Origin: a virus
Lineage: Duplodnaviria > Caudoviricetes
Virus record (IMG/VR): IMGVR_UViG_3300031993_000016
Length of the DNA: 64,000 nt
Strand: one strand, 5' to 3'
A program made the translations under genes and the position numbers. The first letter of the stretch is position 1. The number at the start of each line of letters is the position of its first letter. Under the pieces are notes generated by a model. The model ran no database searches, was not told the origin of the DNA, and was given only the letters and a program-made list of their open reading frames with translations. This document shows, in pieces, positions 4,407-51,336 of the stretch.

Positions 4407-6485
4407 TTACCTCCGAGTTTCTATAAGACATTCTGGAGCAATACGTAATCCATTTGTAGCACTACTAGGCGTATAACGAGCGAAGCTGATTATATTGAAA
4501 TATTCCGGATCACATTTATCATATACAATCACTGGATTACTTATGTTACCAGCATCAAAATAGTCTACACGGTCATCTGCATTCTGTATTACTTTAACCA
4601 CCTCCATTGTGGTTGGTTTCTGACCCATGTGCCTGCTTGCTGGTGCGAAACATAACGCCAAAGCTTCTTGCACTTTTGCAATTATAACCTCACCAACATC
4701 TTTGCTTACAGGTTTCTTTGTATATATTTGACCTACAATATAGAAGTTAAACACTCGTACATCACCGAATTCTAATTCTACTGACATAGCTTGTAACGGC
4801 CTATAATCTCGCTTAACTGCATCTATGAATTGATCTGATGGTCTGTATTTGATAAATACTTGTCTATTAGATACTTTCGCAGATGATGTAACTCCTGGAC
4901 CCCATATACTATTTTTTGCAAAATCATTATGTATTGCAAAACACATCGCTGTATATGTTTTGAAATTAGTAGTAAAATCAATTTCAGGTTCTGCACCGAC
5001 TGCTTTAGGTATTTTTAACATGTAACCTGGATTAACTACAGAATCTGGAGTTAAGTTGTTATACTCTAATAAATCATCATAGGAAACATTATACATGTTT
5101 GCAATTTCTTCTAATGTCTCTCCAGGTGCTACTTTGTGCATTGTTTTAGTGACGAATGTCTCTGTATCTATCTTAGATGCCCAATCTTTTGAAAGATCTC
5201 CTACTGGAAAATCATAATTGGTGATGTACATTTTACGTTTTTGGCTGACGGACAGATTATCATCTTGATAAATTGCTAAATTAGTTTCGAGTGCTTTTTG
5301 ACAATCTAATACAATACCACAATCTACACCAGGCTCTCTATTTAAGAATCTATTGAAGTCAGGTAATGTAATTAAACTATCCCAGGTGTTGATATAATTT
5401 CTGCTGTTGAAATATGCCTCTTTAGCAGTTTCGGGACTCTTACCAGTTACTGTGTGCGTGTTTGGCAATTCTACAGTATTAGATAAGTTAGATACTGCCC
5501 AAGCATTCGAAGACTCTTCGGGTAATCCAGTTGAATCATTGGCTTGAAGATAATTAGATAATACATCTGTACCAACACAACCAATAACTCCAGAACAATC
5601 TAACCAATATATCATTATGTACGAATTATCATCATAAGATTCGAGCTGATCTAAGTAATTACTTATTTGAATCTGTGCATTTGAATAAGAATCATAAGTT
5701 ACAGCGAATCTAGGTTCTGGGGTAACAAATTCTGCAGGACTAGCACATTGTACCCACTGTGTTGCTAAGAAGTTATCTGCGTCTTTAGATGCTTTGGCCT
5801 TCACCCAAATAGCAGTAGTATCAATATGCTGTGATGGTATATTTATTATGTAGTTGTTTTTACGAATGTAATCTACAGATACTGCATAGTATCTGAATTC
5901 GCCTTCAACAGCTACACGAGTTACAGTTTCACCGGGATTAAGTGTAACTTGATCACTCTCAGCAAATACATTTAAATTATCTGTTGTAACAGAGCGTCTA
6001 CTACGACTTTCAGAAGCTCCATACTTATTTGTAAGTGGCAATATATTATAAGTAATTACTCTGGACTGATTAGTTATGTCTGTATACGCATTCAACGTAC
6101 AGAAATTAGATCCGTTGAATCCAAAATCAAATGTAATCGGATTCTGAGAGTTATTTGTAAACGTTACTTCAGTCCTTGCAGCTGTATACCAACCAAGCTC
6201 ATAACCTATTAACGCAAACAGCTTCTCAGCATCCTTTCGTTGACGAACAGAAGGTGCATATATCTCGGTTGCAAGTGCATCTAAGTTAACACCCAGCATA
6301 TTAGCTGCACTCGCAAGTAACTTACCTAATACAACTCCTGGATCCGCATCAGCTTCAGGCTTCCACAACTCAGTAAGTTTAGGCACCATATCCCAAAAAT
6401 CTGCTAATATGGACTCATAATCACGGCTTGTATATTTAACTAGACCCTTTTCTTCATAATCTGTATTATTAATATCTACCGCCAT
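4407..6485 (-). CDS. Baseplate wedge protein (P2 gpJ/T4 gp6-like) with inserted LysM domain
   Basis: YTSRDYESI..DPGVVL..LIGY N-terminus; G.SPET..A...LITLPDF motif; LysM HKVAPGETLEEIANMYNVSYDDLLEYNNL. Confidence 0.8.
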   Translation of the reverse strand: MAVDINNTDYEEKGLVKYTSRDYESILADFWDMVPKLTELWKPEADADPGVVLGKLLASAANMLGVNLDALATEIYAPSVRQRKDAEKLFALIGYELGWYTAARTEVTFTNNSQNPITFDFGFNGSNFCTLNAYTDITNQSRVITYNILPLTNKYGASESRSRRSVTTDNLNVFAESDQVTLNPGETVTRVAVEGEFRYYAVSVDYIRKNNYIINIPSQHIDTTAIWVKAKASKDADNFLATQWVQCASPAEFVTPEPRFAVTYDSYSNAQIQISNYLDQLESYDDNSYIMIYWLDCSGVIGCVGTDVLSNYLQANDSTGLPEESSNAWAVSNLSNTVELPNTHTVTGKSPETAKEAYFNSRNYINTWDSLITLPDFNRFLNREPGVDCGIVLDCQKALETNLAIYQDDNLSVSQKRKMYITNYDFPVGDLSKDWASKIDTETFVTKTMHKVAPGETLEEIANMYNVSYDDLLEYNNLTPDSVVNPGYMLKIPKAVGAEPEIDFTTNFKTYTAMCFAIHNDFAKNSIWGPGVTSSAKVSNRQVFIKYRPSDQFIDAVKRDYRPLQAMSVELEFGDVRVFNFYIVGQIYTKKPVSKDVGEVIIAKVQEALALCFAPASRHMGQKPTTMEVVKVIQNADDRVDYFDAGNISNPVIVYDKCDPEYFNIISFARYTPSSATNGLRIAPECLIETRR

Positions 6486-6938
6486 TTATTGCTCCTCCGT
6501 ATTGAAAAGTTTAGCTCGCTCTTCTTCAATGTCAAGAGTCATGTTTAATCTATCTTTATAGATAGTTTGTAAACCGATTGTCATTTTAAGCTCATTAGCT
6601 TCTATAGCTGTACCTGAATACTGTGTATCACCTGTAAATGCTAAACCATCAGCAAATTGTGTTTGTTCAGCATCAACATAAGGTTCATGAGCTTTAAGCT
6701 GCTCTTTTATCCTAGCTTGTATGATGGCCTTTGTGTTAGGTGTATTATACTGCCATAAGTATCGTTTGAGCCCTACACCTTGCGTAGGTTCATTATACAG
6801 CTCTGTTGGGTTTGTTAATATAAGTAATCGAGTTCGATTTACAATAGATTTGTCTCCTGTATATGTTGATACACAATTTCGCGTAACGTCTATCATATTT
6901 GGGAAACTGATACTAGATGTTGTGTTATTCATAATCAA
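6486..6938 (-). CDS. Baseplate protein, gp25/GPW family
   Basis: RLLILTNPTE.YNEP..GVGLKRYLW...IKEQL..HEPYV matches gp25 pattern; position. Confidence 0.75.
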   Translation of the reverse strand: MIMNNTTSSISFPNMIDVTRNCVSTYTGDKSIVNRTRLLILTNPTELYNEPTQGVGLKRYLWQYNTPNTKAIIQARIKEQLKAHEPYVDAEQTQFADGLAFTGDTQYSGTAIEANELKMTIGLQTIYKDRLNMTLDIEEERAKLFNTEEQ

Positions 6939-7234
6939 TCTCCTGTATTATTAACTGATGTATAATATGAACCACCTGTAAGACCTATTACCATAAAATG
7001 TGAGGTATTTTCGGTAGTATTCATGAGAGCTACTACTTCGCCTTCGACGGGTAGATGTGGTAACAGCACAGATGGGTAATATGGTAGATCTCCGTCACGT
7101 GTGTAGCTCTTTACAGATCTACCCTCATATTCTCTTTGATTCATAGGCCCATGAATAGAAGGAATTCGCACTTGAATAAGTAATGTCCCATCACCAGCAT
7201 ACTTATAATCTTTTACATAACCATTTACTACCAA
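6935..7234 (-). CDS. Baseplate spike OB-fold-like protein (gp5/gpV N-terminal-like)
   Basis: IQVRIPSIHGP...LP.EGEVVA...VIG; between tail lysin and gp25. Confidence 0.55.
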   Translation of the reverse strand: MVVNGYVKDYKYAGDGTLLIQVRIPSIHGPMNQREYEGRSVKSYTRDGDLPYYPSVLLPHLPVEGEVVALMNTTENTSHFMVIGLTGGSYYTSVNNTGD

Positions 7235-7243
7235 TCTATCACC

Positions 7244-9862
7244 TCAGCTCAACCATGAACCATAATTAACTATTCTATCTATCTTTTTATCTAACCAACC
7301 AGCATCTTGTAGACCTTTACGAAGTACATTTTGATCATGTCCATATGCTTCCCATTCAACTACATCTACTTGATTGCCGAAATAATGCCCCCATTCAGAA
7401 GGAGAATCACCACCCTTTGCATCTGCAATAATTGCATTGAAATAGGTCCCATCTTTGAATACTACTGACACAACATCTCCGACATCACCAAACACCGGTT
7501 TAAGTGCAATCAAATAATATCCGCTAATTGTTGCTACACTATAAGTATTAGGCCTACCTTGTGATGCCCATATATCCGCTAATTTACGCTGTACACCTAC
7601 CCATTCATTAAAGTATTCTGTATAACTAGTATAGTTAGCGATTATACCTGTTTGAGGCACCGAGTCAGGTATTGATACCGCAGTACCTTGAGTCACCTTC
7701 ACACCAGATTGTTTAGTTATTACTTCTTGAGCACTAGCAGAAACGCCAGTAGGTCCTGCATTGCTGTTAACTACAACTACTTGGTTCCAATACTCTTCTG
7801 CATAACCTTGTCGTTCTATAGATTTACGATTAACTTCTGCAGGAAATTCAAAGTTTCTGATAAATGCATCAGTAGCTGTTTTAGCACCCTCAAGTGTATT
7901 AGGTACACTTTGTAATGTATGTAACAAATCAATATAATATGATTGATTAAGCTCTATCCATAAGTATTCAAGTTGGCCTGTTAAATTAGTACTCCAATTT
8001 GTACCAGCAACTTGACGCATAGCGGTATTTCGCTCATTATGCCATTGACATAATCCAAATGATGTACCATAATCACCAACAGCATCTGTTCTAAATGAGC
8101 TTTCAGCACGAATGTTAGCAATTACACCAATAGCTGCAGCAGTGTTTAGACCTTTGCTTAAAAGAAATTCTACAATTTCACGAGGTATTGGATCTAATCC
8201 ATCTATGTTATCAGGACTACCTAAGTATCCATCAGGAACTGCTTCTACAACACCCCCAAGTAACCTAACAAGCACCTGTAACATTGATGTGTAATTGATA
8301 ACAGATAACTTTACACTTGTTAATGATATAGAAGGTTTACAGTCATAAGTCATGTAGCAAACTTCACGAATAGATGCATCCAATCTATCGTTTTCTGTAT
8401 CATATAGATCTCTGCGAATGTAAGATGCAGTACCCGTACCAATTGTTGCAGTGCCGCCTACTTTTGTCCAATCAGGTCGAGCATACCAACCAATACCACT
8501 ACCTGTTCGATTCTTCTCTCTAAATTTGTATTCGCTATTACCGGTATTACCTTCAACAGTATACACGATATCACCTTCGCAATATCTAACAATGCCGATA
8601 TGTTGACCATCCCAATATGGATCACCTGGGTTTTGATAAATGATCAAATCGCCAGCTTGTGGCACAGCGTCTGAATTACCACACATAGGCCCATCAATTC
8701 GAGTACCGCCATATTTTTTGACAATTTGTTCTCCAAATGACGGAGCTACATAATCGTCTCCTGGCATGATTACACCAGCATACCCACAGGCCTTAGCAAC
8801 AGCACAACAAGTAGCTGCGCACCAAGCTTGATTCCCTATGTTGGTCATGGACTGAACCCAAGCATGCCCTCCAGTGCCTACATGACTTTCAGCTTCGGCT
8901 ACAAATTTCCTTGCAGGGTGTTCAGGGCTTGTTATGTCTACAATACTAACAGCATCACCACTAACTGCAGGATTGTATATGAATCCTACAAATGTATATC
9001 CGCTATAATCATCATAATTAGGTGGATATCTTTTAGTAGTCCAAAACCGATTGCTCCACCCTACACGACTAGACCATCCGCTTTCGGATGTAGTTATCGA
9101 AATAACTTTGCCAGTAGCGTCTCGTTCAATTTCTTCTACAATACCTACATGGTTAGGCTTCCATACAATTACAGCACCTAACCTTGGTTGATATGGGTCT
9201 GTAGTTTTTTGATATACTTGCGACTCATCATACCAATCGCCTGCATTACCTGTAGGAAGTGCATCAGGAAATCCATTCATAATCTCAGCAAATCTGCCCC
9301 AAGCATATCCAACACACTGACCTGTTAGCTCGCCTCCACTTAATACACAAGTATGCGTGATAGGTTCTACTGGACAATATACTGTAGCAAATTCATGAGT
9401 ATTATATACATTAGCGATTTCAACAAATTCCTCAGTTGCTACAAGTTTAACACTCATACCTTCGCATAAACATTCGGTAGTAATGATTTGATAGTCTTCT
9501 GCATCAGCTAGATTATATATCAGCCATCTGTGATTTGCGCTAGCTCGATAAGTATGACCATTATTAAATGTAACTGACCAAAGTTCTTGTAACCCAAACT
9601 CGCATATTTGAGCTTTTCGATATATTCCGTCTATAGTTAGAATATTTGGCGATGTATTCACTGCATCTCGTAAACACACATTACCTAAATCTGTCATGAT
9701 TTCAGTATCTCCTGAAAAGCAATTTGGTAACACACAATTATATGTTTGCGATTCTGGAGAGTTACCAATTAGTAATCTACCTTGAGCAAAGTCATAGTTC
9801 CACCACTGTGCAGTAGGTTCTGGAGTTGTTAATCTAGGACTATATCCTGTATTACTTGGCAT
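7244..9862 (-). CDS. Tail-associated multidomain peptidoglycan hydrolase (intein-split CHAP + CHAP + phage tail lysozyme)
   Basis: LPN/CVGYAWGR..HVGIVE; WCAA..HIGIV..TVEGNT; AAIGVIANIRAES..FGLCQW. Confidence 0.85.
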   Translation of the reverse strand: MPSNTGYSPRLTTPEPTAQWWNYDFAQGRLLIGNSPESQTYNCVLPNCFSGDTEIMTDLGNVCLRDAVNTSPNILTIDGIYRKAQICEFGLQELWSVTFNNGHTYRASANHRWLIYNLADAEDYQIITTECLCEGMSVKLVATEEFVEIANVYNTHEFATVYCPVEPITHTCVLSGGELTGQCVGYAWGRFAEIMNGFPDALPTGNAGDWYDESQVYQKTTDPYQPRLGAVIVWKPNHVGIVEEIERDATGKVISITTSESGWSSRVGWSNRFWTTKRYPPNYDDYSGYTFVGFIYNPAVSGDAVSIVDITSPEHPARKFVAEAESHVGTGGHAWVQSMTNIGNQAWCAATCCAVAKACGYAGVIMPGDDYVAPSFGEQIVKKYGGTRIDGPMCGNSDAVPQAGDLIIYQNPGDPYWDGQHIGIVRYCEGDIVYTVEGNTGNSEYKFREKNRTGSGIGWYARPDWTKVGGTATIGTGTASYIRRDLYDTENDRLDASIREVCYMTYDCKPSISLTSVKLSVINYTSMLQVLVRLLGGVVEAVPDGYLGSPDNIDGLDPIPREIVEFLLSKGLNTAAAIGVIANIRAESSFRTDAVGDYGTSFGLCQWHNERNTAMRQVAGTNWSTNLTGQLEYLWIELNQSYYIDLLHTLQSVPNTLEGAKTATDAFIRNFEFPAEVNRKSIERQGYAEEYWNQVVVVNSNAGPTGVSASAQEVITKQSGVKVTQGTAVSIPDSVPQTGIIANYTSYTEYFNEWVGVQRKLADIWASQGRPNTYSVATISGYYLIALKPVFGDVGDVVSVVFKDGTYFNAIIADAKGGDSPSEWGHYFGNQVDVVEWEAYGHDQNVLRKGLQDAGWLDKKIDRIVNYGSWLS
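9317..9721 (-). mobile_element. Mini-intein (135 aa, Hint only) in the tail lysin
   Basis: Starts CFSGDTEI, block B ASANHRW, ends VYCPVEPITHTCVLSGGELTGQ, +1 residue Cys; removal restores CHAP motif LPNCVGYAWGR. Confidence 0.85.
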
Positions 9863-9874
9863 GAATCTACCTCT

Positions 9875-11125
9875 CTATAACTGCTGTAAGATGCTACTGT
9901 TAGAATCATAGAATTCACGCTGTGCATCTGTGTCAAAAAATGTAGGGTCTAATAAAGTATCTAATTCAGATAAATCGCTAACATGATTTAATGTCCACAA
10001 GAAGAATTTATCTTTGTAACTATCCCAATCAATATATGATAGTTGTAAACCAGTGGCCATTATACCCATTTGATCTTTGTAGCCTAATCTAACTAGACCT
10101 TTCCAATATCTATCCATTATCCCATTGTTAATTTCTTTGTTTCGTCCTAGATCTAAGTATATCCACACACCTAATTGTGGTACTCTAGAACGTATAGGAA
10201 ATGAAAATTGGAATATTTCCTCATCTGCTTCTTTTTGTGTAATGGCTCGGCCATACATGAACAAACCGTACGGCATATTTATTTCTTCTAATGCATCCGC
10301 TTGTTGTGTAAAGTTAGGATTTAAAAATTCTTTGGTACGTCGTCTGTTATCTTCAAACACATATCCAGCTTCAATAACACCACCAATAACACCTGCATCG
10401 TGTAATTTTGAATAATCAATTTTAGAATTTCGTACTAGTGTAACTAAATATGGATTATATTCTGTGTAATCAACCGGTGCCGATTCGGGAGTACCTGTGG
10501 ATGTATAAGAAGCACTTCCATAAAGGTATGTGACTGAATTAGTAACGGTTGCAGCAGTCATCCTACCCTTCTTAGCAAGCGTCAACTGTTCGTTTACTTC
10601 ATTTGCAATCTGATCCATATGCATAAACAGCCAATTACCTGGACAAGATTTGTCCATATTAAACCATCTATGCACGAACATATTCTGTTCTCGAACCGGT
10701 CCACCATCTGCTGCAGCAAGTGCATAATGTATATCATTTTTCCATTTAAGTTCATATATATTATGTCGATAACATATATCTACTAATAGTTTGATTAATG
10801 CTGCATAAGCTTCATTTGTAGGTTGATAAGGCTCATCATCTGTCATACTAGCAACTTCAATTGTAATTGCCCTATGATCAACTCCACAGCTATCTGTACA
10901 CCAAGCACGATTGTCTTCATCAACGTATCCTGCGATTTTTCCGCTAGAGTCTATACCATAGTTAGATGAAGCTTGTGCTTCAGGATTCTGAAACCAAGTA
11001 CCGCAGCTTTCTACAGAAATATTAGCTGCCATAGTATGTATAGCCACAGAATCAATAATATGATTTCTAGGTTTATTACAATGTAGAGAATACATTATTA
11101 CAGATGCATATTTACTAAATCCCAT
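9875..11125 (-). CDS. N-acetylmuramoyl-L-alanine amidase (Amidase_2) with C-terminal GH25-like domain
   Basis: IHTMA, ASSNYGI, RAWC, ITIE, HRWF..KSCPG motifs. Confidence 0.85.
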   Translation of the reverse strand: MGFSKYASVIMYSLHCNKPRNHIIDSVAIHTMAANISVESCGTWFQNPEAQASSNYGIDSSGKIAGYVDEDNRAWCTDSCGVDHRAITIEVASMTDDEPYQPTNEAYAALIKLLVDICYRHNIYELKWKNDIHYALAAADGGPVREQNMFVHRWFNMDKSCPGNWLFMHMDQIANEVNEQLTLAKKGRMTAATVTNSVTYLYGSASYTSTGTPESAPVDYTEYNPYLVTLVRNSKIDYSKLHDAGVIGGVIEAGYVFEDNRRRTKEFLNPNFTQQADALEEINMPYGLFMYGRAITQKEADEEIFQFSFPIRSRVPQLGVWIYLDLGRNKEINNGIMDRYWKGLVRLGYKDQMGIMATGLQLSYIDWDSYKDKFFLWTLNHVSDLSELDTLLDPTFFDTDAQREFYDSNSSILQQL

Positions 11126-11128
11126 AAT

Positions 11129-11638
11129 TTATTCTCCTTTGTTGTTAGATAATATAAATTTACTATATCCAGAAACTTCTACTGTTTTACCACTAGGATA
11201 ATTTGAAATTTCTCGAATGTTTAGGGTATCAAATGAATGTTCATTTGCTGCTGATAACGTGTCAGTAAATATGTTTGACGGATCTGCTTTGTACCAAGTC
11301 GTTGCACCTATGCGAACGGGCCATGCTGACTGTGTTAATCTGAGTAACTCTAGATGTACATATCTATCTGCAACACCAATCAATTCACCTGCAGCTACGT
11401 ACTGCCCTGCATGAACATTCATAGATGCCAAATGACCATATACAACACAGAAGGACATCCCAGTTTGTATTATAACTGAATGTCCTAGATGTCCTTGATT
11501 AGCTACTACAACAGTACCATCGTATGCTGTGTAAATAGAATCACCTGATATATCAATTCCGATGTGTGATTGATTAGTTGTGCAACCCTCAATGACTTGA
11601 GACGTTTGCTTAGTGATTACACAGTTTGAAATCACCAT
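11129..11638 (-). CDS. M23 peptidase-like protein
   Basis: HIGID, YGHL..V..GQ.V..GELIG, VHLE motifs (HxH degenerate). Confidence 0.7.
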   Translation of the reverse strand: MVISNCVITKQTSQVIEGCTTNQSHIGIDISGDSIYTAYDGTVVVANQGHLGHSVIIQTGMSFCVVYGHLASMNVHAGQYVAAGELIGVADRYVHLELLRLTQSAWPVRIGATTWYKADPSNIFTDTLSAANEHSFDTLNIREISNYPSGKTVEVSGYSKFILSNNKGE

Positions 11639-11657
11639 AATGTCACCCCTATTTATG

Positions 11658-13118
11658 TTAATATGATGCACCCGCACCGAGATTCTGGAATGTTGGGTAC
11701 AATGTTCCAAAATCTACTTTATACGCAGATTTTACATTAGTTGTTTGTGTATACGCATTACTTGGGTAGTTACTGCTACCAGATACAAATATATTTTGAG
11801 CCGAAGCTACTTGATTAGCTGAACTCATTGTAAGTCGCTGTAGTTTAAGTGTTGTTATGAATTGATTAGATATTAGATGACTTACTGACATTATATTATA
11901 TACACCGGAAATTGGCGATACAGTATTGCCCACCATGACAAGTAATGTTACTGGTTGAGCTACATCGTATTTCTTTACACTACCAGCAATACTTACTGTA
12001 AAATCACCACTAAACTGTGACGCAATTGCATTGATATCATTTACAATGTTTACCGATTGAAATACTTCTGATAATGAATTGCTCCAGCTGTTTACTACTT
12101 GTTCATCTTGTATAAGTGTATTACCGCTGCCATCAAGTGAAAATCCTACTGATGCAAAATTCATGTCAGTCATGTTATATGCGATACCATTATATGAACC
12201 TGATATAGATAATATATTAGTATCTTTAGTACCATATTGTAATATATCTCCGATATGTGATGTCATTAATCCTGCGTTACTCTTGTAATGTATAACTCCT
12301 GGAGATGTCATTGTCGGCTCATCTACCCAGTAGGAGAATGAAGCACACTGTGGTGAAGTATCTGTTAAACTTTTCTTCATAAATTCTTTGAGCGGTGTAA
12401 CTGTAGTGTTATTGATGAGCTGACTTAGTTTCTTATATGGATAAGTTATGCCAGCAGCATCTCGAGATCCGCTATATGATTTTGATAGTTTTAGCAATCC
12501 TGGAAACGTGTCATAATCATCATCACCGCTCATTGTACCACGCACGTAGCGATTGAAACTTGTAGTCATTGCACCATGACTAATAAGCGTAGGTGCATCA
12601 TTGTGGTCTATATCTAACTCATAGTAGTAATCAGCTTTTACAGCTTTTGCAAGTGCTTCTACTACTGCAGACGGTTGCACAACACCGGTAAGTTCTGGAA
12701 TCCGTAATACAGGCATACTGCTCTGTACAGCCTGTGAAGCATATCCGCTGACTGTATATGTCATATATAATCCAGAAGTAGAAACATTGAATTTAAGCGT
12801 AAATCCTTGATATGATAGATATTCTGCAACTTGACCGTTATCGTCTAACCATCCAAATGCAAATGCAACTGGAACACCCTCAGCTTCAGGATATGCACTA
12901 GCAGCTTGTGCAGCACTATAAAGCAGAGCTTCAAATGCAGCTATATTTATTTTCTTAGAGTCATCTCCACCAACTACTATCTTAAGCTCCCAGTTTGTGA
13001 AACTCGCTATCTCAGAATTTGATAATGCGAGGCTACAAAATGGTGAAGGAATCTCTGCACCGAATTCTGTTAAGCTAGTTCCTGCGATAGAAAATGCTGC
13101 CCAATGTTGTTTCTTCAT
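11658..13118 (-). CDS. Baseplate hub/tail protein
   Basis: C-terminal SGVYNIMSVSHLISNQFITTLKLQR typical of hub proteins; synteny. Confidence 0.6.
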   Translation of the reverse strand: MKKQHWAAFSIAGTSLTEFGAEIPSPFCSLALSNSEIASFTNWELKIVVGGDDSKKINIAAFEALLYSAAQAASAYPEAEGVPVAFAFGWLDDNGQVAEYLSYQGFTLKFNVSTSGLYMTYTVSGYASQAVQSSMPVLRIPELTGVVQPSAVVEALAKAVKADYYYELDIDHNDAPTLISHGAMTTSFNRYVRGTMSGDDDYDTFPGLLKLSKSYSGSRDAAGITYPYKKLSQLINNTTVTPLKEFMKKSLTDTSPQCASFSYWVDEPTMTSPGVIHYKSNAGLMTSHIGDILQYGTKDTNILSISGSYNGIAYNMTDMNFASVGFSLDGSGNTLIQDEQVVNSWSNSLSEVFQSVNIVNDINAIASQFSGDFTVSIAGSVKKYDVAQPVTLLVMVGNTVSPISGVYNIMSVSHLISNQFITTLKLQRLTMSSANQVASAQNIFVSGSSNYPSNAYTQTTNVKSAYKVDFGTLYPTFQNLGAGASY

Positions 13119-24009: not shown

Positions 24010-24074
24010 ATATCATGTCCTCCTGCATGTACTATAACGAATCTATAGAGATGCTATAGTACCTGCAACCTGAT

Positions 24075-47709: not shown

Positions 47710-48975
47710 CTAAGCGATAGCAGTTGACACTAGAACTGTATCTCTTGCAGACAGTCTTGTTAAGTTATTTAATTTCGGCGTTTTGAAACCTTTCGGCATT
47801 GATGAAAAATCTATTTTGTTACCGCGTGCATTCATAAGAATTGCATATCCAGAAGACATCCTTCCTTGTATGAAATACTCTTTGCCAAAATATTTGACCT
47901 TATCAAATTTTCTGAAGCCACGTATCTTCCCTGTCGGAATTTTCTGCTGGCTTCTAATTCCTTTAGTTTGTTGATAATCTCCTTTAGATACACTCTTTTT
48001 AATATAGACATAGTTTGTTGCAAATAGAGGCTGTTTACCCTCAGATGCAATGACACATGCATCTAAATGGTGGTCTTTAACAATACCTTTCAACGCAAGT
48101 CTGTTAGCTTTTGTCACATAACCAAATGTTTCTGTTGCTCTTGAATATCTTTTTAACAATTGACAGCGAACACTATTCATCTGTGTAGCATACTTAAGTT
48201 GTCCTTTAGCTTTACCACCAAAATTAACTTTGATGCGACCTGCATGTAATGCAGAATGACAAGTATGACAAAGAGTAATCAGATTATCTGCTTCATCACT
48301 GCCACCTTGACTGCGATAGACGATGTGATGAACTTCTAATTTAGAATCTTTGTGTTTACCTTTACATATCTGGCACTTGTAGCTATCTCGATTAAGAACC
48401 CTTGCTTTAGTGTCTTCAAAGCCATAATTAGCGCCTTGCTGGTATCCCCAATGTTTTACTTTTTCATCGGCAAGAGCAGGATTCTTCATCAGATGGCAAT
48501 CAAATGTTGCTGTTTCTAAAACAAGCATCGATATAAGTAATATTGACTTGATATACTCAATCTCTTTGATATGACTGTTCAGTTTACTAATCATTGTAGG
48601 ACTAAATCGGTCTTTCTTGATGCTGTTTCTGCGATTGAGCCATCTCGCTTTGCGGTAGCGTGTTTTTCTGTTTCTGCGATTTCTACGATAGCTTGCTCGC
48701 TGTGTCATTTTGTCTGTGATATCATTTCTGACAATAACTTTTGACATATAAACAATCTTTCCGTCATTAGTAGAAACTGCTGCACCTAATGTTCCAGAAC
48801 CTGTATCAACCCCTAAAGTTAAACTTTGCGTATATTCTGTAGTATCGTAAGTTAACTTGATTGTAAATGGCTCTCGCTTCTTAACTTTTGCTTTGCCTTG
48901 TTTAAGCAATAATCTTGCTATTACATTCGTGCAAGGCATAAGCGGTTTGTTGTCTTTTGACAGAACATAAACCAT
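47710..48975 (-). CDS. iscB: RNA-guided endonuclease IscB (RRXRR + HNH)
   Basis: PLMP domain, RuvC-I GVDTG, Arg-rich bridge helix, RuvC-II E, HNH CQIC..HHI..NLITLCHTCH, RuvC-III HHLDA. Confidence 0.95.
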   Translation of the reverse strand: MVYVLSKDNKPLMPCTNVIARLLLKQGKAKVKKREPFTIKLTYDTTEYTQSLTLGVDTGSGTLGAAVSTNDGKIVYMSKVIVRNDITDKMTQRASYRRNRRNRKTRYRKARWLNRRNSIKKDRFSPTMISKLNSHIKEIEYIKSILLISMLVLETATFDCHLMKNPALADEKVKHWGYQQGANYGFEDTKARVLNRDSYKCQICKGKHKDSKLEVHHIVYRSQGGSDEADNLITLCHTCHSALHAGRIKVNFGGKAKGQLKYATQMNSVRCQLLKRYSRATETFGYVTKANRLALKGIVKDHHLDACVIASEGKQPLFATNYVYIKKSVSKGDYQQTKGIRSQQKIPTGKIRGFRKFDKVKYFGKEYFIQGRMSSGYAILMNARGNKIDFSSMPKGFKTPKLNNLTRLSARDTVLVSTAIA

Positions 48976-48981
48976 ATACAA

Positions 48982-49263
48982 GTCCTCCTTGTAAATACTC
49001 TGCTTTATGGCAGGTGATGCGTATTCTTATACTGTACCATATAAGAAATCCGACCTCCTCTCGACAATGATAATTAGGCTTTTTACACATATAACACAAG
49101 GCTGTTTTTACTCTCACCTAACTTAATGATATATGACAGAGCAACGGTCTGAGGCGACAACCGTAGGTGTCATGACCTAACTATCGTAGTTAAGATTTCT
49201 CTTAACTTAGTCTGTTGACGCATTTAAGAGAATCCCATTGGCTTTAGCCGATGGGTACGTCAA
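48982..49263 (-). ncRNA. IscB omega-RNA (HEARO-type) scaffold; 5' guide from about 49264-49283
   Basis: TTGACG...CGTCAA-CAGACTAAG...CTACG...CACCTACGG..GCCTCAG..GCTCTG...CATTGTCGAGAGG directly upstream of iscB. Confidence 0.85.
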
Positions 49264-49577
49264 GGATATATTGTTCTTTTGTAACAAGTTATCATATTTA
49301 TGTCGGAGTTGCATTCGCAAGTGCTGTCATTCATTGGAAAGAATGTTATCTGTTCTTCGGGTACCTGTAACTCCATAATAACTAGTCGTTTATCATTCTT
49401 TTCTTTGATGAAATTTCGAGCGTGTTGCTCTTGTAAAAAGAATGTTTTACGACCTGTAATCTCTCGTATGATATGTTCACGAATGTATGTAGTAACATCA
49501 TCTCTGTTACATACTAAGTAGCATGTTACAAATCTACCAGATGCTACAGATTTCTTCTTTTTGAATATATTAAACAT
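49260..49577 (-). CDS. Hypothetical protein whose stop codon is supplied by the IscB element
   Basis: 105 aa, AAGGTGA RBS. Confidence 0.6.
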   Translation of the reverse strand: MFNIFKKKKSVASGRFVTCYLVCNRDDVTTYIREHIIREITGRKTFFLQEQHARNFIKEKNDKRLVIMELQVPEEQITFFPMNDSTCECNSDINMITCYKRTIYP

Positions 49578-49608
49578 ATGATCACCTTCACAATATATTT
49601 GTATGTAT

Positions 49609-49682
49609 CAGCCCTAGTTGGATTTGAACCAACGAATGCAGGAGTCAAAGTCCTGTGCCTTTAACCGCTTGGCGATAGGGCT
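49609..49682 (-). tRNA. tRNA-Gln(TTG)
   Basis: AGCCCTA/TAGGGCT acceptor, CAGGA-CTTTGAC-TCCTG, T-loop TTCAAAT; no encoded CCA. Confidence 0.9.
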
Positions 49683-49818
49683 ATTTTTGATATGGTGACT
49701 CAAAGCTATGCCTCCGCTACGTTTTATCTCCATATCTATTCGTCAAGTGTGTTGACCTTGACGACCTTACGGTGGTTTTTTACATATCGCATAACAACAC
49801 TTGCGGTATGAAGCTCTT

Positions 49819-49900
49819 TGCAGGTAGAGGGACTCGAACCCTCAAGCAAAATTGCGTGCGAGCTTAAATCGCATGTGTATTCCAATTCCACCATACCTGC
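49819..49900 (-). tRNA. tRNA-Leu(TAA)
   Basis: GCAGGTA/TACCTGC, TGCGA-TTTAAGC-TCGCA, long variable arm, GAGGG-TTCGAGT-CCCTC. Confidence 0.9.
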
Positions 49901-49911
49901 TTAAGTTTAAG

Positions 49912-50017
49912 GGCTGATGGTAGGATTCGAACCTACGATGTTCCACTATCAACAAGTTGATCAGTCTTGTATCACTTAGCTTCTCTAAGGCAGCTCGTCC
50001 ACTACTGCTACATCAGC
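49912..50017 (-). ncRNA. tRNA-like RNA with non-canonical anticodon region
   Basis: GCTGATG/CATCAGC acceptor, D-like arm, GTAGG-TTCGAAT-CCTAC T arm, two internal hairpins. Confidence 0.7.
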
Positions 50018-50021
50018 TTCG

Positions 50022-50102
50022 TACATCTGGAGGGACTCGAACCCTCAAGCTAACTGCGGCAGATTTTGAATCTGCTGTGTTTACCAGTTTCACCACAGAT
50101 GC
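50022..50102 (-). tRNA. tRNA-Leu(CAA)
   Basis: GCATCTG/CAGATGT, GCAGA-TTCAAAA-TCTGC, variable arm, T arm. Confidence 0.9.
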
Positions 50103-50107
50103 GTGTT

Positions 50108-50237
50108 GACGGCTGTTTCTAAATAAGATCTAGGTTCAATTTAACCAGGAAAGGCAAGGAACTATGAAATCCTATAAAGCTGATTCAATCTACGTCCTGT
50201 ATCTTATCTAGACATTTAACTATTAACTAGCACCGCC
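50108..50237 (-). ncRNA. Unrecognised structured ncRNA, copy B
   Basis: GGCGG/CCGTC closing stem, 12-bp TCTAGATAAGAT/ATCTTATTTAGA stem, promoter motif just upstream, no ORF. Confidence 0.55.
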
Positions 50238-50273
50238 TTGCTTGTTTCATATAACGATTTTAGCATTTTTTAG

Positions 50274-50590
50274 AAGAGGCTGTTACCTTATTTGGAATGA
50301 CGAACCCATCAACTAAAGTTAATGGGATTTCGTGAGAAGTTTGTCAAAAGACCTTATTCTCACAGGCATCGCCAAGATGCCTTTATACAGTTACCAAAAT
50401 CGGTTTCTGCTTACATTTTCCTTATTTAGCAGGCATTTGTTCCCCAAATCATTACGCTCTGTTCTCGTCCTGTTGCCTCAAAATTTAATGTATAGAATCA
50501 AATCAATTGTGGTATTGCATCTGCTCTACGTTTTATGGGGTTTTACTCTGGACATTGGTCATTTAACTAACAAAGCAGTTAGCACCTCTT
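50274..50590 (-). ncRNA. Unrecognised structured ncRNA, copy A, containing an IS200/IS605 end
   Basis: AAGAGG/CCTCTT closing stem; GGTGCTA..TAGTTAAATG..AACAGCC shared with copy B; promoter motif upstream, A-tract downstream. Confidence 0.55.
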
Positions 50591-50736
50591 AGTTACGTCA
50601 CAAACTATAACGAAATTACTATTTCAAAGCTTCGGAACATTTAGCTGTATACTCTCGAATGTATTCAAGAGCTTCACTGTAATTGCTAGATGTCAGATCA
50701 TTTACAGTAATTCTACGAACTTCTCATTAAATTGAT

Positions 50737-51114
50737 TTAGATCTTTGATGTATTTTTTATAATACACCGCTTGTCTTTGTTATATTTTCGATGAATCTTT
50801 CTATCCCTTCCGTCAGGTTTAGGTAAGTATCTTTCTAACAAAGTATCAAAATCTTGATTAGCTTCTTCTTCAATGAGCTTGTCTATATCTACATTACGAC
50901 GTGTGAGTTCTATTGCTTTAACTTTACCAGGAATTGCAAGTACTTCGCACGTGTCACCAATACTAACATATTTAGATACATCTTGAACAAATTCATCTGC
51001 GATGTTTGAGATATGAAGCAGATATGTAGATTCATCACTGAACTTAAGCACTGCCCCATATGGTTTGATTTCAATTACTTCCCCTAAATACCTTTCCCCA
51101 ATAGTAAAATGCAT
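50737..51114 (-). CDS. S1 RNA-binding domain protein
   Basis: G.V.EIKPYGA......LLHISNIADEFV.DV..YV.IGD. Confidence 0.8.
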   Translation of the reverse strand: MHFTIGERYLGEVIEIKPYGAVLKFSDESTYLLHISNIADEFVQDVSKYVSIGDTCEVLAIPGKVKAIELTRRNVDIDKLIEEEANQDFDTLLERYLPKPDGRDRKIHRKYNKDKRCIIKNTSKI

Positions 51115-51123
51115 ATGATTCTC

Positions 51124-51336
51124 CTACAAATGTAATATTCGAGCTAGCTTGTATTCGTCACCGAACCATCCGTTATCATGTAAATCATGCTTAAATTTTT
51201 CATAATCGTGATAATTTGTATGACGTCCTAGTAGCTTCGTGTTTTTATAGAAGGTTCTTGCATCTTCTAAAATGTCTTCAGAACTCCTTCGTGTAGTATT
51301 TTGTAACATCAATTGCTGTGACACTGCTGGTTCCAT
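51124..51336 (-). CDS. Hypothetical protein
   Basis: 70 aa, GGAGG RBS. Confidence 0.55.
   Translation of the reverse strand: MEPAVSQQLMLQNTTRRSSEDILEDARTFYKNTKLLGRHTNYHDYEKFKHDLHDNGWFGDEYKLARILHL

Follow-up and report, generated by a model that had tools for sequence, protein, structure and literature searches.

A widespread family of small structured phage RNAs with a conserved helix junction, two members of which head a tRNA cluster

The window analysed here is the whole 64,000-nucleotide (nt) stretch of IMG/VR record IMGVR_UViG_3300031993_000016 (Duplodnaviria; Caudoviricetes), a low-GC (36.7%) phage-like genome with almost all of its genes on the minus strand. Two related structured RNAs, copy A and copy B, lie at 50108-50590, and this report concerns them and the family to which they belong. 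In minus-strand order, genes for a UvrD-like helicase, an SbcC/Rad50-like ATPase and a 125-amino-acid (aa) protein with an S1 domain are followed by a non-coding stretch that contains the motif TCGTTATA, copy A, a second TCGTTATA, copy B, a 5-nt spacer and the transfer RNA (tRNA) gene tRNA-Leu(CAA). After this gene come a tRNA-like RNA, tRNA-Leu(UAA), tRNA-Gln, a HEARO omega-RNA and an IscB gene. Copies A and B were confirmed as small structured RNAs of a large phage family that had not been catalogued before and that is found at 100 or more phage and prophage loci from many host phyla.

Both copies are on the minus strand. Copy A (317 nt, 50274-50590; identified by sequence, pattern match, fold and a covariance model, R2, described below) reads AAGAGG-U-GCUAAC..GUUAGU-UAAAUG-ACC...GGU-AACAG-CCUCUU from 50590 to 50274. 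Its closing helix, P1, pairs 50590-50585 with 50279-50274, and within it lie a junction U (50584), the P2 hairpin (50583-50566), the strand UAAAUG (50565-50560), the P3 arm (50559-50285) and the strand AACAG (50284-50280). Copy B (130 nt, 50108-50237; identified by sequence, pattern match and minimum free energy (MFE) fold) reads GGCGG-U-GCUA..UAGU-UAAAUG-UCUAGAUAAGAU...AUCUUAUUUAGA-AACAG-CCGUC from 50237 to 50108, with P1 at 50237-50233 paired with 50112-50108, the junction U at 50232, P2 at 50231-50219, UAAAUG at 50218-50213, P3 at 50212-50118 and AACAG at 50117-50113. The minus strand thus reads exactly as had been written in an earlier sequence-only reading of this DNA, in which the copies were taken for two paralogous three-way-junction RNAs that head the tRNA cluster. 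The placement was also as described: tRNA-Leu(CAA), the first of the cluster (50021-50102, minus strand; called by ARAGORN and by the Rfam tRNA model at 57.9 bits), begins 5 nt past copy B, and the spacer between them, defined by the sequence and the tRNA call, is AACAC (50103-50107, minus strand). The same reading had seen no credible open reading frame (ORF), and the minus strand of 50108-50590 indeed contains no ORF of at least 40 aa; the sole ORF there is antisense (50332-50592, 86 aa) and had no Pfam match.

The string shared by the two copies, GGTGCTA(N)TAGTTAAATG, occurred exactly twice in the 64-kb window and not at all in 100 shuffled versions. The MFE fold of copy A had a z-score of -3.9, with none of 100 shuffles folding as well, and recovered the closing stem and the hairpin; that of copy B had a z-score of -1.8 and gave exactly P1, P2 and P3. 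The R2 model matched the 5' part of copy A at 31.2 bits (E = 1.8e-5, a rough value, as are all E-values from a home-made model), and a covariance model search of the window with filters off found no third copy. The string ACAGGACG, which had been said to occur in both copies, is indeed in both, where it forms the 5' side of an inner helix of P3 (CAGG..CCUG); the related contig L121 has this helix as well.

Each copy follows closely on its own TCGTTATA, as had been noticed before. Identified by motif count and position, the two motifs lie on the minus strand at 50606-50613 and 50250-50257, and the first paired base of the RNA is 15 nt downstream in copy A and 12 nt downstream in copy B. The window has 14 occurrences of TCGTTATA, every one on the minus strand, compared with 3.2 expected, and at least eight of these are immediately 5' of a ribosome-binding site (RBS) and ATG or of copies A and B. 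Because of this one-strand excess, and because most sites stand just before an RBS and ATG, TCGTTATA is best read as a putative phage promoter element, probably one used by a single temporal class of genes in this phage and its relatives. No terminator-like site was found in 48900-51200, so transcripts that start at either TCGTTATA should continue into the tRNAs. Example sites elsewhere in the window are at 24040, 24338, 25441, 30637 and 59758, and the motif is often preceded by ..TAG(A/C)T; it was found as well in the related contigs L119, L121 and L324-L326.

These relatives were found through protein-database matches to the SbcC-like protein, hundreds of which are on large phage contigs, and the order helicase, SbcC, S1 gene is retained on the relatives' contigs. 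A BLAST search of the region against cultured phages matched only the tRNAs, with no tblastn match to the SbcC-like protein, and a search of IMG/VR with the SbcC-like protein gave no relative; no phage in culture was found to carry the motif of the RNAs. In L119 (59% identity) TCGTTATA, one RNA and tRNA-Leu come in that order after the S1 gene, and the RNA reads AGAGG-U-GCUGAA..UUCAGU-UAAAUG-ACUUG..CAAGU-AACAG-CCUCU. The L121 RNA, AGAGG-U-GCUCAGUU..ACUGAGU-UAAAUG-UCCU..AGGA-AACAG-CCUCU, ends 5 nt before tRNA-Leu(CAA), and the L326 RNA, GG-U-GCAUUC..GAAUGU-UAAAUG-UCC..GGA-AACAG-CCU, ends 5 nt before tRNA-Gln. The base of P2 changes from GCUA/UAGU in the window to GCUG/CAGU, GCUC/GAGU and GCAU/AUGU in L119, L121 and L326, and every change is compensated, while the junction U, UAAAUG and AACAG are constant across the window copies and all three relatives. 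The P3 arms of the four long orthologues could not be aligned with MAFFT and RNAalifold.

In two more distant relatives, L123 and L324, a different RNA occupies the equivalent slot. The L324 RNA (6880-7005) is promoter-driven, lies between the S1-domain gene and the first tRNA and has a 12-base-pair (bp) closing stem, UAGAGGUUG../..CAACCUCUA; the slot RNA of L123 (9195-9380) reads GAGAGGUGCUCG..CGAGC and does not have UAAAUG. These different promoter-driven RNAs suggest that RNA genes turn over at this site.

The core of the family was defined as GG-U-GCU[P2]AGU-UAAAUG-[P3]-(AA)CAG-CC. Exact-pattern scans of IMG/VR found at least 117 and at least 93 loci; with members collected in this way, the family size is a lower bound and the consensus and host range are partly set by the patterns. 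For a pattern with 20 fixed bases, tens of chance matches are expected in this volume of DNA, so the number of matches proves nothing by itself and the test is pairing at the positions that the pattern leaves free. Among 81 distinct matches from the second scan, the three P1 positions outside GG/CC were paired in 88, 75 and 59% of matches and the three P2 positions inside GCU/AGU in 91, 87 and 84%. Shuffles gave about 40% and never reached the observed counts. All four Watson-Crick pair types were frequent at the free positions, and the inner part of P2 used AU, UA, GC and CG.

Building a covariance model and searching phage metagenomes with it had been proposed as a check in the sequence-only reading; here a covariance model, R2, found 100 members in 98 loci. 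In the R2 alignment of 99 distinct sequences, 88.8% of the P1 and P2 cells were paired, compared with 65.4% in shuffles, and there were 335 double-change cells, compared with 124. The covariation score was 0.518 against 0.123 in shuffles (none of 500 reached the observed value), and controls with slid partners scored at most 0.135. The R2 alignment was fitted to its own model, and for that reason the independent count of pairing at free positions matters. Copies were also found beyond the reach of the patterns, two in L145 and others in L035, L180/L151, L037 and L142, all of which keep GG-U-G..U-UAAAUG..CAG-CC. At the base of P2 these copies can have GCG/AGU (with a G-A mismatch) or GAA/UUU, GCA/UGU being seen in L326, and CUG and AAG are rare variants of CAG. 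The conserved three-way-junction family that had been proposed from two copies is therefore borne out by stems that covary over about 100 independent loci around fixed junction strands, and by the compensatory changes in the syntenic relatives. The description of the copies as a paralogous pair holds in that both share the core, but they are not a private pair, because the core recurs in the relatives and at 100 or more loci.

Searches of whole records found one to four copies per phage genome, and all three of the complete genomes tested (33-62 kb) carried at least one. Pattern matches in a collection of prokaryote genomes were mostly chance-like, and 29 had both helices; these came from Saccharibacteria, Clostridia, Bacilli, Erysipelotrichaceae, Acholeplasmatales and others. 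The surroundings of the prokaryote matches looked phage-derived, with a weak, sub-threshold match to a YqaJ-like recombinase and proteins of unknown function. One subfamily associated with Saccharibacteria has the palindrome CUUAAG in its P2 loop (L131, L141, L152, L181, L222, L239, L260, L270 and L313; the loop of L313 is CCUUAAGG), which could allow loop-loop dimerisation.

Comparison of the members gave a consistent anatomy. The top two pairs of P1 are G-C, and its outer pairs covary (AAGAGG/CCUCUU in copy A, GGCGG/CCGUC in copy B). P2 begins one U after P1 and is closed by a G-U pair in all 99 sequences. UAAAUG is directly 3' of P2, and (N)CAG is directly 5' of the 3' strand of P1 in copies A and B, L119, L121 and L326. 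Folding of single sequences gave P1 and P2 as one continuous, coaxial helix, usually with P3 present; the 5' strand of this helix runs through, and its 3' strand is broken by UAAAUG, P3 and (AA)CAG. The invariant G-U would be C-A on the complement, so only one strand can fold, and that strand is shared with the flanking genes: of the nearest ORFs of at least 100 aa, 61 of 68 on the upstream side and 53 of 65 on the downstream side have the element's orientation. The G-U pair and this co-orientation show that the element acts as RNA rather than as DNA.

Minimal members are about 55-80 nt (59 nt in L170 and 57 nt in L200), with about 16 near-invariant nucleotides concentrated at the junction. 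The linker from UAAAUG to CAG is 4-34 nt in short members and 47-277 nt in the lineage of the window phage, and P3 can be a few nt long or, as in copy A, about 275 nt; a linker stem of at least 4 bp was found in 24 of 90 short members, compared with 8.7 expected. This range of linker lengths indicates that P3 is an optional, expandable arm. The third helix of the earlier description is present in copies A and B, but across the family it is not a fixed helix. Two readings of the junction fit the data. In the first, the strand between P1 and P2 is U, that between P2 and P3 is UAAAUG and that between P3 and P1 is AACAG. In the second, more compact reading, the U pairs with the G of CAG, UG-CA forms the first two pairs of P3 and UAAA is the sole free strand. 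These positions are invariant, so covariation cannot choose between the two.

The P3 arm of copy A contains a stretch that resembles another RNA. Local alignment identified, at 50297-50353 on the plus strand, an antisense relic of the first 56 nt or so of the IscB omega-RNA (HEARO, RF02033), an RNA that is present in bona fide form, together with IscB, 0.8 kb downstream. The relic scored 54 against the 5' end of the window's own HEARO, compared with 29.3 +/- 5.1 for shuffles (1 of 1000 reached the score), and changes in its hairpin relative to HEARO are compensatory; it is too fragmentary to match the Rfam HEARO model, and was below every threshold. The likeness is on the opposite strand, fragmentary and limited to P3, the fragment is missing from copy B and from nearly all other members, and the family core has no resemblance to HEARO. 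The stretch is a relic that lies outside the core, in an arm that is dispensable, and it shows that foreign insertions are tolerated in P3.

The earlier statement that the RNAs could not be assigned to a known class was upheld by Rfam 15: copies A and B and short members had no match at gathering score, and even at E-values up to 10 only chance-level hits were seen. ARAGORN and the Rfam tRNA model (RF00005) were silent on 50108-50590, while the three adjacent tRNAs scored 53-63 bits. The motif GGUGCU..UAAAUG..CAGCC is absent from the sequences of the T4 species 1 and 2 RNAs (rnaC, rnaD), and the HK022 genome does not have the arrangement GGTGC..GTTAAATG; the put sites of HK022 are not annotated, so the comparison with put RNA is of the motif. 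An integron attC site (core GTTRRRY) was rejected because there is no inverse core partner. Resemblances by eye to boxA, ops and tracrRNA were set aside, since the bases that match are in helices or lack conservation, and a mimic of a translation start (GGUG .. AUG) was dropped on inspection because the mini-ORFs past the AUG have 2-17 codons and are not conserved. An association with DUF3800 was absent from five records. A literature search on the motif strings returned nothing relevant, and a 2026 preprint on noncoding space was likewise of no bearing. Fremin et al. 2023 listed 10,006 anonymous phage RNA candidates (PMC10690425), and catalogues of this type may already include the family without a name.

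The genes next to members are varied, with a bias towards replication modules: among their products are DNA polymerase, primase, exonuclease, recombinases, MazG, terminase, transglycosylase and head proteins. Such variety speaks against a cis-regulator tied to one gene. In about 45% of members the coding sequence upstream runs to the foot of P1, with 7-9 nt between its stop codon and the GG. A tRNA on the same strand was found within 500 nt of 12 of 78 real members (about 15%) and of 1 of 39 chance-like matches. The spacer to the next tRNA was 4-5 nt in five independent cases (copy B of the window, L121, L326, L175 and L274), and in L133, L175 and L179 the element occupies a slot directly between tRNAs. 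Tandem copies were found in L145 and L035. In L035 a skipping-rope RNA (RF02924, 60.6 bits; 4685-4787, minus strand) abuts a family member on the 3' side, and a second member 0.6 kb beyond it makes this a small island of non-coding RNA genes.

The mechanism that we tentatively prefer, at somewhat under an even chance, is that the element is a stable small RNA cut from polycistronic or tRNA precursors, which would act through its conserved junction. A free-standing processed RNA is suggested by the lack of a fixed neighbour family, the one to four copies per genome, the lack of a terminator, the proximity to tRNAs and the 4-5 nt spacers. Under this reading the RNA would be co-transcribed with its neighbours, here from its own putative TCGTTATA promoters onward into the tRNAs, and then released as a discrete, stable molecule with both ends shielded by the P1 clamp. 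Where a tRNA follows, the 3' end of the RNA would be determined by RNase P as it cuts the precursor at the start of the tRNA; at the boundary of copy B and tRNA-Leu(CAA) such a cut is expected from the known role of RNase P. P3 would be a free arm able to carry insertions, and the conserved junction would be the working part, at which a partner shared by very different hosts would dock; this partner would most probably be part of the tRNA or translation machinery. The string UUAAA also matches U-U-N-R-A, the T-loop signature, and may be a lead in this direction.

Precedents for this reading are the stable RNAs of the T4 tRNA cluster, GOLLD and ROOL near tRNAs, and the skipping-rope RNA next to the L035 member. 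The T4 species 1 and 2 RNAs are small, stable and of unknown function, and are co-transcribed and processed with the tRNAs of the phage cluster in which they lie (NC_000866 annotation). They follow the tRNAs and have tRNA-like 3' parts, whereas the junction family is also found far from tRNAs. GOLLD and ROOL have been found near tRNAs in prophages (Weinberg et al. 2017, PMC5737381), and like skipping-rope they are orphan structured RNAs of phages or prophages whose properties hint at a sophisticated function (PMC5737381). GOLLD and ROOL differ in being 500-800 nt long, skipping-rope differs in having a terminator and an associated protein family, and none of their Rfam models matches the family described here.

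Several observations weigh against a stable processed RNA. Most members are away from tRNAs, so the tRNA association noticed at copies A and B, which do adjoin a cluster, does not extend to the family as a whole. No protein gene co-occurring with the element, and no fixed partner family, was found among the neighbourhoods surveyed. The start of many members right after a stop codon would suit a cis-acting element of the 3' untranslated region, or a processing element, equally well. The near-invariance of the junction is due in part to collection by exact patterns, with about a dozen copies found independently of them, and the T-loop lead depends on a match to a sequence signature. Finally, a conserved junction with variable stems, no terminator and tandem copies is also typical of small self-cleaving ribozymes.

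A new class of small self-cleaving ribozyme is accordingly the main rival, although on the sequences in hand we consider it unlikely. Such a ribozyme would serve as RNA punctuation: its cut, at or close to the junction, would divide polycistronic phage transcripts, tRNA precursors among them. It would account for the small minimal size, the invariant junction nucleotides, the freely covarying stems and the expandable arm, and a self-contained catalytic core could explain conservation over phages of unrelated host phyla. The intergenic position, the co-orientation with genes, the lack of a terminator and of a fixed gene partner, the tandem copies in L145 and L035 and the adjacency to tRNAs would fit as well. 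In size, in the combination of invariant junction and variable stems and in intergenic, co-oriented phage placement, the family resembles the hammerhead, pistol, hatchet, twister-sister and HDV-like (hepatitis delta virus-like) theta ribozymes. Theta ribozymes are adjacent to phage tRNAs, and in the pistol ribozyme a hairpin is followed by UUAAAU. However, no Rfam ribozyme model matched the family even at E-values up to 10, and the helix topology is unlike the pistol and HDV-like folds. The HDV-like double pseudoknot, including that of theta, is excluded because, in 78 members, the flanks up to 40 nt on either side were no more complementary to UUAAAUG than shuffled flanks. Bacterial ribozymes cluster near phage genes and near one another (PMC10085705), but the hammerhead core blocks, including those of permuted forms (PMC10085705), are absent on inspection, and the similar-looking orphan motifs skipping-rope, DUF3800-I and FuFi-1 failed to self-cleave when tested (PMC5737381).

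A cis-acting signal for end protection or processing seems less probable still. The element would be a fold that caps the upstream messenger RNA (mRNA) at its 3' end, or the downstream one at its 5' end, and that is recognised by a host RNase or resists it, like the RNase III hairpins between T7 genes. The stop codons at the foot of P1, with the downstream gene much more distant, suit such a cap, as do the promoters that lie between the element and the downstream gene in L009 and L034, the co-orientation with genes and the joining of P1 and P2 into one long coaxial helix. On the other hand, a simple stability hairpin does not need a junction sequence that is invariant across host phyla, and a helix of 12-15 bp is short for RNase III. 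In the window, L119 and L121 the RNA follows its own putative promoter and precedes tRNAs, so no mRNA is ended there, and where a member is flanked by tRNAs on either side there is no mRNA that it could protect.

There is only a slight chance that the element is an aptamer that binds some small molecule found in every cell and works as a free-standing sensor or sponge. Its compact junction, invariant unpaired nucleotides, G-U pairs, size typical of small aptamers and conservation across host phyla would be consistent with this, but it has no expression platform, terminator or consistent class of downstream gene, some copies are inside tRNA arrays, and there is no similarity to riboswitch models. 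A selfish or neutral repeat, or a single-stranded DNA hairpin site, with no function as RNA is disfavoured as very improbable: several copies per genome and a variable P3, which in copy A includes a transposon-derived fragment, could suggest a repeat, but two helices are maintained by compensatory changes over great divergence, the strand that the invariant G-U allows to fold is the transcribed one, terminal repeats and transposase association are absent, and the missing inverse core partner excludes an attC-like hairpin.

Orphan structured RNAs with an invariant core and a wide distribution have repeatedly proved to be ribozymes, riboswitches or guide RNAs. It is conceivable, if doubtful, that this family is a new catalytic or machinery-binding class, either a tenth or later class of self-cleaving ribozyme or a T-loop RNA that docks on a universal component of the tRNA or translation apparatus, at work in phages from many bacterial phyla. 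The short length of the RNA and its highly variable third arm would explain why such a class had escaped notice. Should the RNA turn out to be a catalyst or to bind a universal host factor, it would be relevant to transcript processing by phages or to their manipulation of host translation. The minimal form of about 55-60 nt can easily be synthesised and assayed, and its arm can be swapped or extended. The family also adds a compact member to the poorly understood non-tRNA RNAs of phage tRNA islands and provides a concrete model with which phage genomes can be searched and annotated.

Between the two tRNA-Leu genes of the window is a tRNA-like RNA (49912-50017, minus strand) that was called by neither ARAGORN nor the Rfam tRNA model, and an RNA of this kind is in the same place in L121 (9236-9340). 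The acceptor stem is GCUGAUG/CAUCAGC in the window and GUCGGCG/CGCCGGC in L121, and the T stem is GUAGG/CCUAC and GCGGG/CCCGC, respectively. Because these stem changes are compensatory, it looks like a conserved, non-canonical tRNA-like RNA. At the tail of the cluster is an intact-looking IscB gene that encodes 423 aa with RRXRR and HNH domains; the HEARO omega-RNA ahead of it is full length (101.9 bits), and the two together span 47710-49263 on the minus strand. TnpB genes are near the equivalent region in the related phages L119 (9010-10251) and L127 (3313-4566). The 213-kb related phage L123 has several tRNA genes of about 119 nt (9428-9546, 9900-10018 and neighbours) with an insertion of about 45 nt past the anticodon region, and these adjoin a gene for a DUF2828 protein (10336-11844) within the tRNA island.
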